Positions 45,754-52,682 of a DNA stretch of 64,000 bases are shown piece after piece. Below the pieces are notes generated by a model. It saw only the letters and a list, made by a program, of their open reading frames with translations, was not told the DNA's origin and searched no databases. A program made the position numbers and the translations under genes. Source of the stretch: an uncultured Gemmatimonadales bacterium (lineage in GTDB: Bacteria > Gemmatimonadota > Gemmatimonadetes > Gemmatimonadales > GWC2-71-9); the NCBI GenBank assembly GCA_963771275.1, contig CAVYSW010000005.1, forward strand, positions 96,001 to 160,000, given 5' to 3'. The number at the start of each line of letters is the position of its first letter. Positions within the stretch are counted from its first letter, which is position 1.

Positions 45754-46419
45754 ATGCGGTGTGTCGGAGGCGTGTGGTGGGGGAGCGTGCTCGGGGCGGT
45801 CGCCGTGGGGGCCCAGGCGCCGATGCGTGAGGCGTCAGCCCAGGACCCGGGCGCGACGCCGGGGTTCGAGCAGCTCCTCAAGACGCCCGACGGCGGATAC
45901 TCCAAGGCTGGGTGGAACCACTACGGTCCGGGCTACTTCGATCTCGATCCGCAGACCGGGATGCTGACGTCGCACGGCGGCATGGGTCTGTTCTGGTACG
46001 CGGTCCGAGAGTACGCCGACTTCGTGCTCGAGCTGGATTTCAGGTGCACGGACGGGGCGACCAACTCCGGCGTGTTCCTGCGGGTGCCCGGTGTGCCGTC
46101 GAGCGACGACTACATCTATCACAGCTTCGAGATCCAGATCGACGACGCGAGCGCAGGGATTCACCACACCGGTGCGGTGTACGACGCGGAGGCGCCAAGC
46201 GCGCTCGCGTCGAAGCCGCCGGGCGAGTGGAATCACTACGCGATCACCTTTCGGGGCGGCCACGTCACCGTCGAGCTCAACGGCACGAAGGTGATCGACT
46301 GGGAAGCCGAGCCGCGGGGCAAGGTGCGGGACTGGGCACGGCGGGGCTACATCGGGCTCCAGAACCACGACAACCAGAGCCCCGTGTCCTTCCGCAACAT
46401 CTTCGTCAAGCAGCTCTAG
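45754..46419 (+). CDS. DUF1080 / 3-keto-disaccharide hydrolase family protein, secreted
   Basis: DFVLELDF, NSGVFLR, FEIQI, TGAVYD, GEWN and GYIGLQNH...FRNI motifs; signal peptide. Confidence 0.92.
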   Translation: MRCVGGVWWGSVLGAVAVGAQAPMREASAQDPGATPGFEQLLKTPDGGYSKAGWNHYGPGYFDLDPQTGMLTSHGGMGLFWYAVREYADFVLELDFRCTDGATNSGVFLRVPGVPSSDDYIYHSFEIQIDDASAGIHHTGAVYDAEAPSALASKPPGEWNHYAITFRGGHVTVELNGTKVIDWEAEPRGKVRDWARRGYIGLQNHDNQSPVSFRNIFVKQL

Positions 46420-47083
46420 CCGGCGTGGTGGATCGGGTGGGCGCCGGCACGAGGCGCCCGCTCCACCACCACGCGAGCCCCGCGAGCACCACCCCGCAGC
46501 CGACGTCCGCCACGTAATGCTGCTTGACGAACACGGTCGAGACCGAGATGCCCACGAGGAGCGCCAGCAGCAAGTGCGGCCGTCGCAGGGCGGGACGACA
46601 CGCGAAATAGAACAGCCAGGCGGTCGCCACATGAAGGCTCGGGAAGTGGTTGTACGACGGGTCGTGGTACTCGAGCCAGAGCAGGAACGTCGCGACCGAG
46701 CGGATCTCGAGCCGCGGCCGCTCAAGGTACACCGGGAAGGCGAGGTACGTGGCGTACGCCGCCGCGAGCGTGACGCCGATCGCCACGAGCAGCCGCGCGA
46801 ACGCGCGCGCGTCGGGCAGCCGGAACAGCGCCACGAGCGGCACGAAGTAGGCGAGCACGTAGAGGAACTCGAACTCGGGCACGAACGGGATTGCCTGCTC
46901 GCGGGGCAGCCAGAGCGCGTGCGCGGGCCGGCCAATGCTGAGCGCGTTGACGGCGCTGTACGTGACGGCGAAGATCGCGTAGGTCACGAGCAGCACCACG
47001 ACGAGGCGGCGCCGTTGGAGGCGCCCCTCGGGGGCGACCCACCGGGAGAGGCCGGCGAGCGTGGTGGGGCGAGGCTGAGGCAT
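46406..47083 (-). CDS. PAP2 superfamily membrane protein, inositol-phosphorylceramide-synthase (AUR1)-like
   Basis: IPFVP, D..YNHFPSLHVA and STVFVKQHYVAD motifs; about 6 TM segments. Confidence 0.85.
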   Translation of the reverse strand: MPQPRPTTLAGLSRWVAPEGRLQRRRLVVVLLVTYAIFAVTYSAVNALSIGRPAHALWLPREQAIPFVPEFEFLYVLAYFVPLVALFRLPDARAFARLLVAIGVTLAAAYATYLAFPVYLERPRLEIRSVATFLLWLEYHDPSYNHFPSLHVATAWLFYFACRPALRRPHLLLALLVGISVSTVFVKQHYVADVGCGVVLAGLAWWWSGRLVPAPTRSTTPARAA

Positions 47084-47130
47084 CGCGCTGCAAACTGCGC
47101 CGCGGGCCACCCGGAGACAACGGGGGTGTG

Positions 47131-47922
47131 ATGACGCCCTTCCGCCTGGAGAAGTGGTACCTCGACGTCGTGGGCGACGACGGGACGCTGCTGATCGTCA
47201 CGCTCGGGGAGCTCCGGCTCGGGGGGCTGCGACGCGCACGCCTGGCGGCGGAGCTGCATCGCCCGGATGGGACCACGGTCCGGGACACGCTGTCGCTGGC
47301 CCATTTCCGACGCACCAGCGGCGGCTGCACTTTCGCGGCGGGTGGGCTGGAGCCGGACGGGCTCGCGTGGCGCGCGCCTGGTCTGTCCGGGTCGGTCCGC
47401 CTGGTGCCCAGATTCCCGGCCTTCACGCCCGCCGATCCGCTGCTCGCGACCCGCCGCCGGTCGCTCCGCTGGACGGTCGAGATCCCCGACGCCGATGCGG
47501 CGGTCGACCTGACTTGGCCCACGGGCCGGCTCGCGCTGGGCGGCCGTGCCTACTGCGATCGCGTGCTGCTGGACGCGATGCCCTGGCGGCTTGGGCTGCG
47601 CCGGCTCGCCTGGGGCCACGCGGTATTCCCGACCGGGGCCACCTGGTGGCTCGAGCTCGTGACGCGCCGCCACACCATTGCCGCCACGTGGCGTGACGGC
47701 GTGCTCTCCGCCGGCTGCGCCCCGCCGGCGCTGGAGCCGGCGCGCACCCTGGGGGATTACCGCGTAGTGGATCTCCCCGTCTTGCGGATCCCGCCGCTCG
47801 GCACGGTGGTCCGGTGGCTGGCGGGCGATCCGCACCAGCAGCGCTGGCTCGCCCGGGCAGTCGGCGCGGAGCGCGGCTGGTCGGTTCACGAGCTGGTACG
47901 CTGGCGCGCGGGCGACGCTTGA
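47131..47922 (+). CDS. Hypothetical protein, possible CrtC/tocopherol-cyclase-like beta fold
   Basis: KWYLDVV N-terminal motif and G.AYCDRV...PW...WG motif; Trp-rich beta pattern. The fold call is tentative. Confidence 0.6.
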   Translation: MTPFRLEKWYLDVVGDDGTLLIVTLGELRLGGLRRARLAAELHRPDGTTVRDTLSLAHFRRTSGGCTFAAGGLEPDGLAWRAPGLSGSVRLVPRFPAFTPADPLLATRRRSLRWTVEIPDADAAVDLTWPTGRLALGGRAYCDRVLLDAMPWRLGLRRLAWGHAVFPTGATWWLELVTRRHTIAATWRDGVLSAGCAPPALEPARTLGDYRVVDLPVLRIPPLGTVVRWLAGDPHQQRWLARAVGAERGWSVHELVRWRAGDA

Positions 47923-47972
47923 CGGGCGCTTGACACCCGGCCCGTACGCTCCCCGCGACTCAAGGAGGCTTC

Positions 47973-49355
47973 ATGCGCGAGATGCCGGACCCGGGGGCCT
48001 GGGGCCTCGAGCGCCGCGAGGGCCGTCTCCGGCTCGACGGGTGCGATCTCCCGGCGCTCGCCGCCGAGCATGGCACGCCGCTCCACGTCGTGTCGGCGCG
48101 GACGCTGCGCGAGCGCGTGGCCGCGTTCCGCGCGGCGTTCGCTGCCTACCCCGGGCCGGTGCGGGTCTGTTTCTCCTACAAGACCAATCGGCTGCTTGGG
48201 GTGCTGCGGGTGCTGCACGACGCCGGCTGCGGTGCCGAGGTCGTGGATGAGCTGGAGCTCCGACTTGCCCGCGCGCTCGGGGTGCCGCCCGCCGACACCG
48301 TGCTCAACGGACCGTGCAAGACCGACGACGAGCTGGCGCTGGCCGTCGCGTCGGGCACCGGCCTGGTGGTGGTGGACGGCCTGGGGGAGATCGCCCGGTT
48401 GGCGCGTCGGGCGGAGGTGGCGGGGGTCCGCGTGCCGGTCGCGCTGCGCGTCTGTCCCGGCGTGCGCCCGCGCGGCATGAACGTCTCGTCGGCCACCGGG
48501 GCGCGGCGGGCGCAGTTCGGGTTCGATCGGCGGTCGGGGGAGCTGCGGGACGCGATCCGCGCCGCGCTCGCCGAGCCCGCGCTGGAGCTGCGCGGCGTGA
48601 TGGCCCACATCGGCTCGGGGATCCGTGACCTCCGTGCCGTCGCGCGGGGCATCGAGCGGCTGCTCGACGTGCAGCAGGCGATCGCCGCGGCCGGCGCCCG
48701 GGCGGACGTGCTCGACGTGGGTGGCGGCCTCGGCGCCCGGCTGTCACGCGAGCTCACGACGTTCGAGATGCTGCGCTATTTCGCCGTCGGGCGGCTGCCG
48801 GCGCGGTGGCGCCCGGGTCCGGCCGATCTGGTGCGGCGCTACGCGACCACGGTGATCGCGACCGTCGCAGCCGGGTGCGCCCACCGCGGACTCGCGATTC
48901 CCGCGCTCGTGCTCGAGCCGGGCCGGACCCTGGTGAGCGACGCGCAGGTCCTGCTGCTGCGCGTGGGCGCGGTCCGGGAGCGCCCCGGGATCGGTCGGTT
49001 CGCGCTCACCGACGGCGGGGCGATGACCGTCTCGATGATGTTCCTCTCAGAGCAGCACGCCCTGCTGCTCGCCAACCGCGACGCGCCGGTCGCCGGCCGG
49101 ACCAACGTGTTCGGGCGCCTGCCCAGCCCGATGGACGTGGTGTACCGCGGCGCCGCGCTGCCGCGACTCGAAGTGGGCGACCTGCTCGCCGTCATGGATG
49201 CGGGCGCGTACTTCACCGCCACGGAGACCTGCTTTGGCGGCGCGCGGCCGGCGGTGGTGCTGGTCGACGACGGCGCGCCGCGCCTGATTCGCCGGCGCGA
49301 GTCCCTCGCCGACCGAGTGGCGCTCGAGGTGGACGGCGATGCGATCCCGCAGTAG
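47973..49355 (+). CDS. Fold-type III PLP-dependent decarboxylase (diaminopimelate/ornithine decarboxylase family), atypical
   Basis: AAGGAGG RBS; GTPL, FSYKTN (PLP Lys), NGP.K, HIGS, DVGGG, EPGR and GAY motifs; usual GP.CE..D replaced by GRLPSPMD. Confidence 0.88.
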   Translation: MREMPDPGAWGLERREGRLRLDGCDLPALAAEHGTPLHVVSARTLRERVAAFRAAFAAYPGPVRVCFSYKTNRLLGVLRVLHDAGCGAEVVDELELRLARALGVPPADTVLNGPCKTDDELALAVASGTGLVVVDGLGEIARLARRAEVAGVRVPVALRVCPGVRPRGMNVSSATGARRAQFGFDRRSGELRDAIRAALAEPALELRGVMAHIGSGIRDLRAVARGIERLLDVQQAIAAAGARADVLDVGGGLGARLSRELTTFEMLRYFAVGRLPARWRPGPADLVRRYATTVIATVAAGCAHRGLAIPALVLEPGRTLVSDAQVLLLRVGAVRERPGIGRFALTDGGAMTVSMMFLSEQHALLLANRDAPVAGRTNVFGRLPSPMDVVYRGAALPRLEVGDLLAVMDAGAYFTATETCFGGARPAVVLVDDGAPRLIRRRESLADRVALEVDGDAIPQ

Positions 49356-50916
49356 CGAAGCCCGCCGGCGGGCCCTCGTAGTCACCGCCTACGTGCTCGT
49401 GTTCTGGGTGGCGCTCCCGGTGCTGCTGTGGATGGCGGGGCGCGCGATCGACCGGCTTGCCGGCTGGTTGCCGGCTCCATGGGCCGGTGGTTGGGTAGTA
49501 GGCGCGGCGGGGCTGGCGTACATGGCTTGGGCCATCGCCGCGCTGTGGCGCCATGGCGGCGGGGTCCCGGTGAGCGCGCTGCCGCCGCCTCGGCTGACGC
49601 GTCGCGGACCGTATGCCCGCGCGCGCCATCCGATCTACCTCGGCGCTACCCTGGTGGTGTTCGGCGCCGGCCTCGCGCTTGGCTCGCGCGGCCTCGCCTG
49701 GGTCGTGGCGCCGCTGTTCGTCCCGCTGTGGATCGGCTACGCGCTGCTGGAGGAGCGGGGCCTCGTACGCCGCTTCGGCGGGGAGTACCGGCGCTACCGG
49801 CGGGAGGTGGGCCTGTGCCCGCGGCCCGGGCTCTACCGCCTGAGCCAGGCGGTGCAGGTCTGCCGGGTGCTGGACGTGCGGATCGAGGGACGCGAGCATC
49901 TGCCGCGCCGCGGTCCGGTCGTCCTCGTGTACAATCACGCCTGCTATCTCGACGCGGGGTTCGCGGGGACGGCCACCGGGCGTCCGGTCCACCACCTGAC
50001 GACGGCGGAGGTGTATCGACGCGGCACAATGCGCTGGCTCGTGAGCCACTTCGTCAACGTGCCCGTCCGGCGCTACCGGCCCGATCCCACCGCCATGCGC
50101 GCGGTGCTGCGGCTGCTGGACGAGGGCGCCGTGGTGGGCATCGCGGTCGAGGGCGAGCGGTCGCTGCTGGGTGACTACCAGGGAGCGCTGCCCGACGTGG
50201 CCGGCATCGTGGCGCGGCTCGGCGTTGCGGTCGTTCCGGTCGGTCTGAGCGGTAACTACGATGCCGGACCACGCTGGGCCGATGTCGTGCGGCGGCGCCC
50301 CGTGCGGGTGCGGGTGGGCCCGCCCATCGCCTTTGGCGGTGATCCGGCCGCCGTGATCGACGACGCGCTGCGCCGGTTGCTGGATGCGGATCCGCAGCCC
50401 CTACGACTCACCGGTCTGCCGATGGCCAAGCTGGGCCGCGTGCTGTGGCGCTGTCCGCGCTGCGGCGACGTGGGGCGCTGGCGCGCGGCCGCGCTCGGCT
50501 GCGACGGGTGCGGCGCGCGCTTCACGGGCACCGCCGAGGGCTGGCTGAGGGACGAACGAGGTGCGCGCACGACCATCGCCGCACTCGGCACGAGCGTCGC
50601 CGCGTTTCCCGAGGAGGACCGGCTCGCCGTCGTGGGCTCGGTGTGGCGCGAGGGTTCGATGTACGGGCCCATCAAGCCCCTCCTCCCCGTGGCGCGCGGG
50701 CAGGTCGCGGTGACACCCGATGCGATCGCGTTCGACGGCGGGCAGGTGCCGCTGCGCGTGGTGCGGCGTGTGTCGACGGAGCGGGCGGACACGCTGCAGA
50801 TCGCCACGCTTGCCGCCATGTGGCAGGTGCGCGTGGCCGAGGGCTCGGCCTTTCGGCTGGCGCGGGCGGTGCGGCGGTGGTGCGGGACCCGCCTCCCGGC
50901 CGGGAGCGTCGCGTGA
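49339..50916 (+). CDS. Fusion protein: ICMT/PEMT-type membrane methyltransferase, PlsC-type acyltransferase, CxxC/CxxC module and C-terminal domain
   Basis: GPYARARHPIYLG and EERGLVRRFGGEY (ICMT/PEMT); NHACYLD and EGERS (acyltransferase); CPRC...CDGC. Confidence 0.85.
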   Translation: MRSRSSEARRRALVVTAYVLVFWVALPVLLWMAGRAIDRLAGWLPAPWAGGWVVGAAGLAYMAWAIAALWRHGGGVPVSALPPPRLTRRGPYARARHPIYLGATLVVFGAGLALGSRGLAWVVAPLFVPLWIGYALLEERGLVRRFGGEYRRYRREVGLCPRPGLYRLSQAVQVCRVLDVRIEGREHLPRRGPVVLVYNHACYLDAGFAGTATGRPVHHLTTAEVYRRGTMRWLVSHFVNVPVRRYRPDPTAMRAVLRLLDEGAVVGIAVEGERSLLGDYQGALPDVAGIVARLGVAVVPVGLSGNYDAGPRWADVVRRRPVRVRVGPPIAFGGDPAAVIDDALRRLLDADPQPLRLTGLPMAKLGRVLWRCPRCGDVGRWRAAALGCDGCGARFTGTAEGWLRDERGARTTIAALGTSVAAFPEEDRLAVVGSVWREGSMYGPIKPLLPVARGQVAVTPDAIAFDGGQVPLRVVRRVSTERADTLQIATLAAMWQVRVAEGSAFRLARAVRRWCGTRLPAGSVA

Positions 50917-51236: not shown

Positions 51237-52682
51237 ATGTGGAAGCGCGGTATGCTGCCCGTCTCGGCGGCGCTCGCGATCCTGTGCCTGTCACAGCCAG
51301 CGGCGGCCCAGAAACTGGGCTCGATCGAGATCGGCGCGTTCGGCCGGTATACCATCTTCGACAACGGGATCAACCTCAAGAACGCCATCGGGGGAGGCGG
51401 TCAGCTCGGCTTCTACCTCATGCCGCGGCTCTCGCTGGAGTTCTCGGGGGCGTACGTCCCCACGAAGGACAAGGCAACCGAGGCGGTGAACGTCAAGCAC
51501 ATCCCCGCGTTTGCCCGATTGCTGGTCAACGTCCCGGTGGGCGAGAAGTTCTCGATCCTCGTGGGAGGCGGGTACCTGCGCTCCTTCTACATGTATGGCG
51601 TCCCCGACAGCACCCAGCACCATGGCGCGCACGGCCTGCTCGGGTTCCGCGCCTGGCTCACGGACGCCGTGAGCGTGCGGGCCGAGGGGATCCTGCAGTA
51701 CACGCCCACGCAGTATCACGTCGACCCGGCGCAGAAGACCTACGCCGTCCAGCTCGGCGTGAGCTACGTGATGGGCCGGGCCGGCAAGGACACCGACGCC
51801 GACGGCGTGCCGGACAACAAGGATGCATGCGCCGCGACGCCGGCGGGCGTGCGGGTCGATGCGGCGGGCTGCCCGCTGGATACCGACAAGGACCACGTTG
51901 CGGACTACCAGGATCGCTGCCCCAATACGCCGGCCGGGGCCCAGGTAGACGGTAGCGGCTGCCCGACGGATGCGGACAAGGACGGTGTGTTCGATGGGCT
52001 CGACAAGTGCCCCAATACCCCCGTGGGAGCGCAGGTCGATGCGTCGGGCTGCCCGACCGACGCCGACAAGGACGGCGTGTTCGACGGCCTCGACAAGTGC
52101 GCCAACACGCCGGCCGGCACTCCGGTGGGCGCGACCGGCTGCCCGCGCGACTCCGACGCCGACGGCGTGAACGACGCGCTGGACAAGTGCCCCAACACGC
52201 CGGCCGGGGCGCAGGTGGATGGCACCGGCTGCCCGACGGACGCGGACAAGGACGGTGTGTTCGACGGTCTCGACAAGTGCCCCAACACGCCGGCCGGCCG
52301 GCAGGTGGATGCGAACGGCTGCCCGGTGCTGTTCGAGGAGAACAAGCCGCTCATTCTGCAGGGCGTCACGTTCGCGACCGGCAAGGCCGACCTGACCGGG
52401 AACTCGCGCACGGTGCTGGATCTGGTGGCCCAGTCGCTGATCGGCTGGCCCGATCTCAAGGTGGAAGTCGCCGGATTCACCGACAACACCGGCTCGGCGG
52501 CCGTGAACTCGCGGCTGTCGCAGGCCCGGGCGGAGGCGGTGCGCGCGTACCTGATCTCCAAGGGTGTGCCGGCCGCTCGGCTCACGGCCAAGGGCTACGG
52601 GCCCGCGCAGCCGATTGCCCCGAACACCACGCCGGCAGGGCGGGAGAAGAACCGTCGGGTGGAGCTGCGCAAGACCAGCTGA
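51237..52682 (+). CDS. OmpA family outer-membrane protein with thrombospondin type 3 repeats
   Basis: Signal peptide, beta-barrel N-terminus, six DxDxDG..D..D.CP repeats, C-terminal GFTDNTG...LSQARAEAV...NRRVE. Confidence 0.94.
   Translation: MWKRGMLPVSAALAILCLSQPAAAQKLGSIEIGAFGRYTIFDNGINLKNAIGGGGQLGFYLMPRLSLEFSGAYVPTKDKATEAVNVKHIPAFARLLVNVPVGEKFSILVGGGYLRSFYMYGVPDSTQHHGAHGLLGFRAWLTDAVSVRAEGILQYTPTQYHVDPAQKTYAVQLGVSYVMGRAGKDTDADGVPDNKDACAATPAGVRVDAAGCPLDTDKDHVADYQDRCPNTPAGAQVDGSGCPTDADKDGVFDGLDKCPNTPVGAQVDASGCPTDADKDGVFDGLDKCANTPAGTPVGATGCPRDSDADGVNDALDKCPNTPAGAQVDGTGCPTDADKDGVFDGLDKCPNTPAGRQVDANGCPVLFEENKPLILQGVTFATGKADLTGNSRTVLDLVAQSLIGWPDLKVEVAGFTDNTGSAAVNSRLSQARAEAVRAYLISKGVPAARLTAKGYGPAQPIAPNTTPAGREKNRRVELRKTS
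51789..52328 (+). repeat. Six intragenic 90-bp (30-aa) TSP3-type repeats
   Basis: Units like DADKDGVFDGLDKCPNTPAGAQVD..GCPT. Confidence 0.88.

Follow-up and report, generated by a model that had tools for sequence, protein, structure and literature searches.

A conserved gene module around a cysteine-less fold-III PLP enzyme in Gemmatimonadota: a candidate pathway for a lipid with an amino-acid-derived head group

The locus

A cluster of four genes lies in a 64,000-nucleotide stretch of DNA (the window) from an uncultured Gemmatimonadales bacterium (GenBank assembly GCA_963771275.1, contig CAVYSW010000005.1, positions 96,001 to 160,000); the source genome, G000, is 96.7% complete. On the reverse strand, a PAP2-type gene (46406-47083, with its ATG at 47083) encodes P0001, a protein of 225 residues. 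A 47-bp gap (47084-47130) separates it from a divergent, forward-strand run of three genes: a beta-rich open reading frame (P0002; 47131-47922, 263 residues); a fold-III pyridoxal phosphate (PLP) enzyme of the diaminopimelate (DAP)/ornithine decarboxylase family that lacks the catalytic cysteine (P0003; 47973-49355, 460 residues), preceded by an AAGGAGG ribosome-binding site; and a PEMT-acyltransferase fusion (P0004; 49339-50916, 525 residues), whose start overlaps the end of the P0003 gene by 17 bp. This layout, gap and overlap included, agrees to the nucleotide with an earlier sequence-only reading, which took the cluster for an undescribed pathway of membrane-lipid biosynthesis. The evidence gathered here points to a membrane-bound pathway of modular make-up, of which the cluster is one version and which would build or tailor a lipid with an amino-acid-derived head group, the PLP step forming a carbonyl; we put this reading at somewhat short of an even chance.

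The membrane enzymes and the beta-barrel protein

The PAP2/IPC-synthase-like, fold-III and PEMT plus PlsC-type assignments made at first reading are all upheld by Pfam matches above the cut-offs. P0001 matches PAP2 (36.3 bits) and PAP2_3 (PF14378; 34.1 bits, cut-off 27), has four hydrophobic segments and both catalytic histidine motifs, and keeps H151, H189 and D193 invariant across 13 aligned sequences. Judged by these features, it is a predicted membrane phosphatase or phosphotransferase of the PAP2_3 type, similar to AUR1 and inositol phosphorylceramide (IPC) synthase; against the phosphoinositol dihydroceramide synthase model NF052609 it reaches 17.5 bits, with a cut-off of 480.

P0004 joins a PEMT domain (PF04191; 28.8 bits, cut-off 25) to an Acyltransferase domain (PF01553; 57.7 bits, above its cut-off), and its domain scores and motifs place it in both the PEMT/ICMT and the PlsC/LPLAT families. 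R96-H97-P98-Y100 and E138-E139, the RHP-x-Y and EE motifs of PEMT/ICMT enzymes, which presumably bind S-adenosylmethionine (SAM), are invariant in 16 homologues; so are H200-x4-D205, E271/E273/R274 and four cysteines (C372/C375/C388/C391). The acyltransferase half scores 36.8 bits against the housekeeping PlsC model TIGR00530, far from its cut-off of 102.95, and the NCBIfam matches of P0004 are weak, to MddA, ICMT and LmtA (LmtA E 0.0039).

What, then, is the beta-rich protein for which the sequence-only reading could name no family? Neither P0002 nor its 24 aligned members match any Pfam family, CrtC, Svf1 and DA_N included; only more distant homologues match CrtC or Svf1_C. A sequence search found no solved relative, and the identity of P0002 came from fold search alone. 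Its alignment-based AlphaFold model (predicted local distance difference test score 92.2) is almost wholly beta, and the protein, which has no hydrophobic segment, is soluble. Foldseek places the model closest to CghA (E 1.5e-10) and to the AttH protein NE1406 (E 9.4e-10), with Fsa2 and Phm7 also among the fold matches. VIA-align gives Z scores of 21.6 for CghA, 18.9 for NE1406, 16.8 for 25-phosphosteroid lyase and 16.4 for kievitone hydratase, the next row falling to 8.2; 240 residues align with CghA at a root-mean-square deviation of 3.0. The Atlas feature of P0002 matches CrtC_C/DA_N/Svf1 at 0.94-0.96. The model thus assigns P0002 to the duplicated, calycin-like double beta-barrel fold shared by AttH/NE1406, CrtC, Svf1, fungal Diels-Alderases, kievitone hydratase and 25-phosphosteroid lyase, although it is shorter than these proteins (263 residues versus 320-380), 9-19% identical to them and, unlike them, tied to a PEMT/PAP2/Lgt module. 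P0002 may be a lipid binder or carrier, a hydratase or a lyase; the fold alone does not fix the function. For NE1406, a role in lipid metabolism has been proposed, and its homologues associate with ABC transporters (PMC2954199).

A decarboxylase-like enzyme without its cysteine

P0003 carries Orn_Arg_deC_N (PF02784) and Orn_DAP_Arg_deC (PF00278), both above their curated cut-offs, together with the lysine, histidine, glycine loop, EPGR, aspartate and tyrosine that mark the fold-III PLP decarboxylase superfamily: K70, H212, G250-G252, E315-R318, D347, D388 and Y413 are invariant in an alignment of 17 clade members. The canonical G-x-x-C-E/D motif, by contrast, has lost its catalytic cysteine. 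Pro384 (codon 49122-49124, forward strand) takes the position that this residue holds in DAP and ornithine decarboxylases, and aligns with the catalytic cysteine both of the closest solved relative, DAP decarboxylase 1twi (E 1.4e-48), and of the genome's own LysA. That LysA is a paralogue on contig C10 which scores 448.1 bits against TIGR01048 (cut-off 297.9); P0003 reaches 252.7 bits and lies below every NCBIfam cut-off. P0003 is therefore not LysA, and the possibility that it is the genome's only one, which would have undercut the first reading, falls away. A PLP-dependent stand-in for phosphatidylserine (PS) decarboxylase, which P0003 might still be, is not needed: G000 has a normal Psd.

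The proline is not peculiar to this genome. Among the top 150 representatives drawn from a search of 1.84 billion proteins, the catalytic-cysteine column holds proline in 31 (clusters at 50% identity) and cysteine in 105. The proline rows form a single clade with no cysteine row inside it (support 98 in a quick FastTree run); a second tree gives the core of the clade a support of 99 and the whole clade 81. K70, E315, R318, D388 and Y413 are retained in all covered rows. The specificity helix of the proline enzymes is hydrophobic (mean 0.62, versus -0.20 in LysA-like rows and 0.09 in cysteine-bearing relatives), which suggests a lipid-like substrate. The label 'diaminopimelate decarboxylase' that some clade members carry in databases (P0192) is probably wrong. 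Fold-III homologues outside the clade (P0267, P0284, P0311 and P0270) have leucine, alanine or serine in the same column; the cysteine has therefore been lost more than once.

Has an enzyme that lost its catalytic acid become a pseudo-enzyme, a binder of PLP or another ligand or a regulator, with the other three proteins doing the chemistry? Ornithine decarboxylase (ODC) needs Cys360 for its activity (PMC9520691), and the core of the module described below occurs without a PLP gene. Against this stand the retention of the PLP lysine and other site residues across 31 clusters at 50% identity, the replacement of the gene by another, apparently intact PLP enzyme in some genomes and its fusion to an aldehyde dehydrogenase (ALDH) gene; a pseudo-enzyme is very improbable. 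Jackson and colleagues are said to have reported in 2000 that ODC Cys360 mutants divert to decarboxylation-dependent transamination.

A recurrent module with interchangeable parts

Loci were collected from genomes with P0003 (65 loci) and from metagenomes with the clade alignment (the best 80 of 178). The tally omits L031 and L085, in which the decarboxylase ends before the cysteine column, as well as L001-L022 and L168-L172, which are loci of the genome itself or have 1.5-kb flanks, and counts L080, with serine, outside the clade. At 34 of the 41 loci of the proline/alanine clade (proline 39, alanine 2) at least one partner gene is present, versus 4 of 102 loci outside it, all four being PEMT-BtaA fusions; many of the rest have ATP-grasp and glycosyltransferase genes next to them. 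The beta protein is found at 31 clade loci, PEMT at 30, PlsC at 24, PAP2 at 16 and an Lgt-like gene at 5; beta protein, PEMT and PlsC stand together at 23, and all four window genes at 13. Several clade loci are near-duplicates and many sit on short contigs, so these counts are not independent. The grouping of the four genes exceeds chance, and the idea that they form a conserved module has passed its synteny test.

Gene order and strand vary among the clade loci; Gemmatimonadota, Myxococcota and Acidobacteriota have reshuffled versions of the cluster. Its closest homologues are in records titled Gemmatimonadota; the titles Enterobacterales and Rickettsiales (L028, L034) are unreliable, both records belonging to the same phylum as a Myxococcales record. 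The distribution is patchy: the window-type cluster is present in 2 of 401 genomes of the source phylum, G000 included, and a P0003 search of 60 relatives (six of the same genus, 71-89% complete) yielded no window-type decarboxylase, the best match being a BtaA-type enzyme at 43%.

Parts of the module are more widespread than the cluster. The P0002 profile matches 27 of the 401 genomes, and a PEMT fusion is the next gene at 25 of 28 P0002-type loci. In 19 of 20 wider regions (one truncated) the beta protein stands beside a PEMT-PAP2-Lgt protein of about 650 residues, with no fold-III gene nearby. This two-gene core of AttH-fold protein and PEMT-PAP2-Lgt fusion is found in about 25 of the 401 sampled genomes and also in the phylum of an Acidobacteriota record, where 7 of 301 genomes match; of 8000 candidates scored, 1780 are homologues of the fusion, and a plasmid search with it gave no match. 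At the stand-alone two-gene loci (L235-L254, L322-L325), the Lgt-like domain has a conserved cysteine-rich motif, and its consensus has serine in place of the glutamate of H-P-S-Q-L-Y-E, which we take to be the Lgt motif.

Natural fusions bind the parts together. In L287, AttH, PEMT and Lgt share one 848-residue chain beside an ABC-permease-PAP2 fusion, and the proline-type PLP enzyme is fused to PAP2 (P0164), to ALDH (P0168) and to PEMT-Lgt (P0200, P0218); P0164 and P0168 are single-member clusters, whereas the clusters of P0200 and P0218 contain three and two full-length members. Each window gene somewhere has a fusion partner drawn from one small set, which makes the evidence for one pathway strong. 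The core of the module is an AttH/CrtC-fold protein with a PEMT/ICMT methyltransferase, usually joined by PAP2 and by a lipid-transfer enzyme, which is Lgt-like in most versions and PlsC-like in the window; the cysteine-less PLP enzyme is an add-on. Since the conserved partners all come from lipid-handling families, a role in lipids is likely; this much of the membrane-lipid proposal stands.

Does the module build or break down? ABC-2 transporters, alpha/beta hydrolases, a radical SAM enzyme and MMPL/HpnN-like transporters recur as extras at the loci. The hydrolases, the transporters of the MMPL and ABC types and the ALDH would suit the degradation or recycling of lipidated amino acids, among them perhaps the S-diacylglyceryl-cysteine of lipoproteins or prey lipids, by hydrolase, phosphatase, deamination to an aldehyde and oxidation; the barrel fold includes the degradative 25-phosphosteroid lyase, and CcbF makes an aldehyde from an S-conjugate of cysteine (PMC7497351). 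However, the partners that recur most constantly are building enzymes whose motifs are intact, namely a SAM-type methyltransferase and transferases of acyl or diacylglyceryl groups; a catabolic role is improbable.

Carbonyl or amine?

The sequence-only reading expected the PLP enzyme to supply an amine head group. Three observations speak instead for a carbonyl-forming or transaminating step: the catalytic cysteine is lost, an ALDH gene is fused or adjacent in one subclade, and an enzyme like dialkylglycine decarboxylase (DGD) takes the place of P0003 in another. The ALDH gene lies directly 3' of the PLP gene in L045, L046, L057, L109 and L113, and among NCBIfam models it matches best those of oxidising enzymes, aminobutyraldehyde and succinic-semialdehyde dehydrogenases. 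The replacement comes from an order in which 6 of 25 genomes have the PEMT-PlsC fusion. Three of the six (G071, G075 and G072, the last split across contig ends) have the proline enzyme; in the other three (G659, G1046 and G1047), a class III PLP enzyme sits between the same neighbours, in the decarboxylase slot, and the best fold-III match is a cysteine-bearing enzyme. The closest solved relative of the slot enzyme is DGD (E 1.8e-80; next family 2.1e-54), which catalyses decarboxylation-dependent transamination (PMC6411801). Of six DGD site residues (Q52, W138, M141, S215, K272 and R406; PMC10169451), the slot enzyme P0159 keeps Q52, S215, K272 and R406 in alignment, W138 and M141 being replaced by tyrosine and alanine. 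Five proline-enzyme genomes contain no close DGD-like gene (best 32-33% identity, versus 70% among the three DGD-like genes); the two enzymes are mutually exclusive in the genomes checked. A precedent for acid loss comes from dopa decarboxylase, in which Y332F yields an aldehyde-forming enzyme (PMC7497351). Taken together, these data suggest that the product of the decarboxylase-like enzyme is probably an aldehyde and not an amine, and the amine-supplying role first proposed for it is left unsupported.

An amine product has arguments of its own. The PLP step could be an ordinary decarboxylation in which a different acid stands in for the cysteine, or it could use decarboxylation to drive the amination of a lipid aldehyde or ketone in the manner of DGD, whose second half-reaction makes an amine; the amine would then be acylated and N-methylated to an amine or betaine-like lipid, with ALDH supplying the aldehyde. 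PEMT-family enzymes methylate amine head groups, and the ALDH of L045 has a weak match to LuxC (1.4e-7). A neighbouring, cysteine-bearing clade is found in operons with DAG-kinase, PEMT-BtaA (DUF3419), GNAT, decarboxylase, aldolase-II and ABC genes (L004, L041-L044), a setting in which decarboxylation and N-methylation of a free alpha-amino-acid lipid would be conceivable. However, the cysteine is lost throughout the proline clade, the best ALDH matches are oxidising, G000 has a normal PS decarboxylase and gave no BtaA match (in a search whose controls also matched nowhere), and one tree places the BtaA clade as sister with a support of only 90, an arrangement that the other does not recover as such. 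An amine lipid is unlikely on this balance, and is kept from a lower ranking because DGD-type chemistry can aminate a lipid carbonyl and because the neighbouring clade occurs in PEMT-BtaA operons.

These BtaA operons are conserved units in their own right: L041-L044 and L004/L176 combine a YegS/DAG-kinase, a PEMT-BtaA fusion, a GNAT that presumably resembles bacterial ceramide synthase, a cysteine-bearing fold-III decarboxylase, aldolase-II and FtsX/ABC genes, and in L004 and P0177 the aldolase-II domain is fused to the decarboxylase. Their products could, from the gene content, make a decarboxylated, methylated homoserine-type lipid on diacylglycerol (DAG) or ceramide.

Several observations weigh against a pathway of four dedicated genes with a carbonyl-forming PLP step. 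The core without a PLP gene in 19 of 20 regions makes that step optional. PAP2 is missing from 25 of the 41 clade loci and divergent in the window; in G070 and G073 the PLP and PEMT-PlsC genes lie far apart or on different contigs. Beside the window cluster there is neither an ALDH nor an Lgt-like gene, and, since G000 has a single Lgt match, the Lgt-like step of other versions is unavailable here. The DGD-like swap is one event in three kin genomes, not three; two of the site residues are changed, and class III relatives also include lyases (PMC8154272). Lastly, Cys161, present in 11 of the 31 proline representatives, might replace the lost acid in part of the clade.

The carbonyl-forming pathway, if correct, could run as follows. 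The PlsC domain would acylate, and the PAP2 enzyme would remove or transfer a phospho group, to give the lipid scaffold. The PLP enzyme would bind a hydrophobic alpha-amino-acid substrate and decarboxylate it; with no cysteine acid, C-alpha would stay unprotonated and an aldehyde or ketone would be released, by decarboxylation-dependent transamination or oxidative deamination. ALDH, where present, would oxidise the carbonyl to an acid, and the ICMT/PEMT domain would methylate the head group on a carboxyl oxygen or a nitrogen. The beta-barrel protein would carry the lipid or perform a hydration or elimination step, and the ABC or MMPL transporter found at many loci would export the product.

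Relation to known pathways

Each domain in the cluster belongs to a known family; judged by sequence, the set fits none of LysA, Ols, Bta or Spt/bCerS/CerR, much as the sequence-only reading had concluded when it could match the combination to no known pathway. P0003 shares two Pfam domains and PLP-binding residues with LysA, ODC, DokD, FslC and BtrK, and differs from LysA and other fold-III decarboxylases in the exchange of cysteine for proline, of the following glutamate for serine, and in the hydrophobic specificity helix; its GGG-to-EPG spacing of about 62 residues (33 in LysA-like rows) reflects an insertion common to cysteine-bearing relatives. The proposed chemistry, decarboxylation ending in a carbonyl, is that of DGD and the fold-I aldehyde synthases (DHPAAS/PAAS, CcbF and dopa decarboxylase Y332F), but P0003 is of fold III and unrelated to them in sequence. 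We know of no natural fold-III aldehyde-forming decarboxylase, and a literature search on the subject returned nothing relevant.

In the betaine lipid pathway, BtaA and BtaB make diacylglyceryltrimethylhomoserine (DGTS) by a similar head-group transfer and methylation, and the neighbouring clade pairs PEMT-BtaA fusions with a related decarboxylase; the window cluster, in contrast, lacks BtaA (PF11899; a local search of G000 with a BtaA seed was also blank), has a PEMT/ICMT-type methyltransferase, and partners it with PAP2, PlsC/Lgt-like and AttH-fold proteins. The ornithine and acyloxyacyl aminolipid pathways (OlsB/OlsA/OlsF, OlsG) likewise combine a PlsC-type acyltransferase with methylation; no OlsB/OlsF-type N-acyltransferase is encoded by the four genes or their conserved neighbours, the genome as a whole not having been searched for OlsB. 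The word 'decarboxyl' is absent from the searchable text of two aminolipid reviews (PMC12971839, PMC11631085). No description of this cluster was found in the literature covered, which left out most subscription papers.

Is the product a sphingolipid, as first suggested? P0001 is PAP2_3/AUR1-like, as in the bacterial sphingolipid pathway (Spt, bCerS and CerR with IPC-synthase-type enzymes), and G000 holds candidate backbone genes: on contig C6, a run of Spt-like, GNAT, NAD-dependent epimerase/reductase and PAP2_3 genes (L173:7629-11795) forms a candidate sphingolipid operon, a type also seen in L182, L187, L189 and L202. The C6 GNAT is a putative bCerS, and a GNAT alignment revealed no solved relative and no NCBIfam match; the Spt-like protein reaches 537 bits of a 640 cut-off. 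The window cluster, in contrast, has no backbone genes, and P0001 is far under the NF052609 cut-off. Of 24 genomes with the cluster, 21 carry the ceramide-synthase-like GNAT, but so do 50 of 61 relatives, almost none of which has the cluster; co-occurrence is therefore uninformative about a link to ceramide, and a sphingolipid-like product finds no specific support.

More broadly, the scaffold that the module tailors might not be a glycerolipid but ceramide, lipid A, a carotenoid or some other isoprenoid. In its favour one can count the C6 operon, the IPC-synthase-like PAP2_3 domain, the inclusion of CrtC and Svf1 in the fold of P0002 and the weak LmtA match of P0004. The GNAT is background, though, the C6 operon has its own PAP2_3 with no significant blastp match to P0001, and no carotenoid or lipid A gene occurs among the neighbours scanned; the probability of such a scaffold is low. 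This reading, catabolism and the pseudo-enzyme are all weaker than the carbonyl and amine readings.

Genomic setting

Upstream of the cluster in the window, a 3-keto-disaccharide hydrolase gene (45754-46419) converges on the PAP2 gene with a 14-bp 3' overlap; downstream, 51237-52682 encodes an OmpA-like outer-membrane protein with thrombospondin type 3 repeats. Neither flanking gene recurs around homologous clusters. A promoter scan of the divergent gap gave no sigma-70-type match, and the one terminator-like site in the scan is at chance level.

Three further arrangements were seen around fold-III enzymes. In two near-identical loci only (L033:4623-5993 and L092), a PLP gene resembling D-cysteine desulfhydrase/cysteate sulfo-lyase is divergent from the proline-type enzyme. 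In polysaccharide loci, a large cysteine-bearing, LysA-like clade (L047-L087, L118-L167) has ATP-grasp ligases, glycosyltransferases and asparagine synthases as its neighbours. Upstream of a related cysteine-bearing decarboxylase, L108:80-670 is a CarS-like gene (CDP-archaeol synthase family).

Implications

The chance is real that the lipid class is new, and likewise the fold-III reaction. The fullest form of this proposal, which joins two claims, is doubtful but possible: that enzymes of the proline clade, which spans at least 31 clusters at 50% identity, work on a lipid-linked amino acid as natural aldehyde synthases or decarboxylating transaminases of fold III, and that a membrane lipid of a new class is the product of the AttH, ICMT, PAP2 and Lgt/PlsC module. 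Within that joint claim, such a lipid might, for example, be an amino acid bound to diacylglyceryl through a thioether or ether link; the two-gene core would methyl-esterify it, and the extended versions would first trim it to an aldehyde or acid. The two-gene core is small enough for direct expression. If the proposal is true, second-copy Lgt-like, ICMT-like and AttH-fold proteins, whose annotation at present stops at their domains, would acquire functions, a new outcome of the fold-III decarboxylase reaction could be traced to one residue, and three abundant phyla, mostly uncultured and with lipids about which little is known, would gain a lipid pathway.

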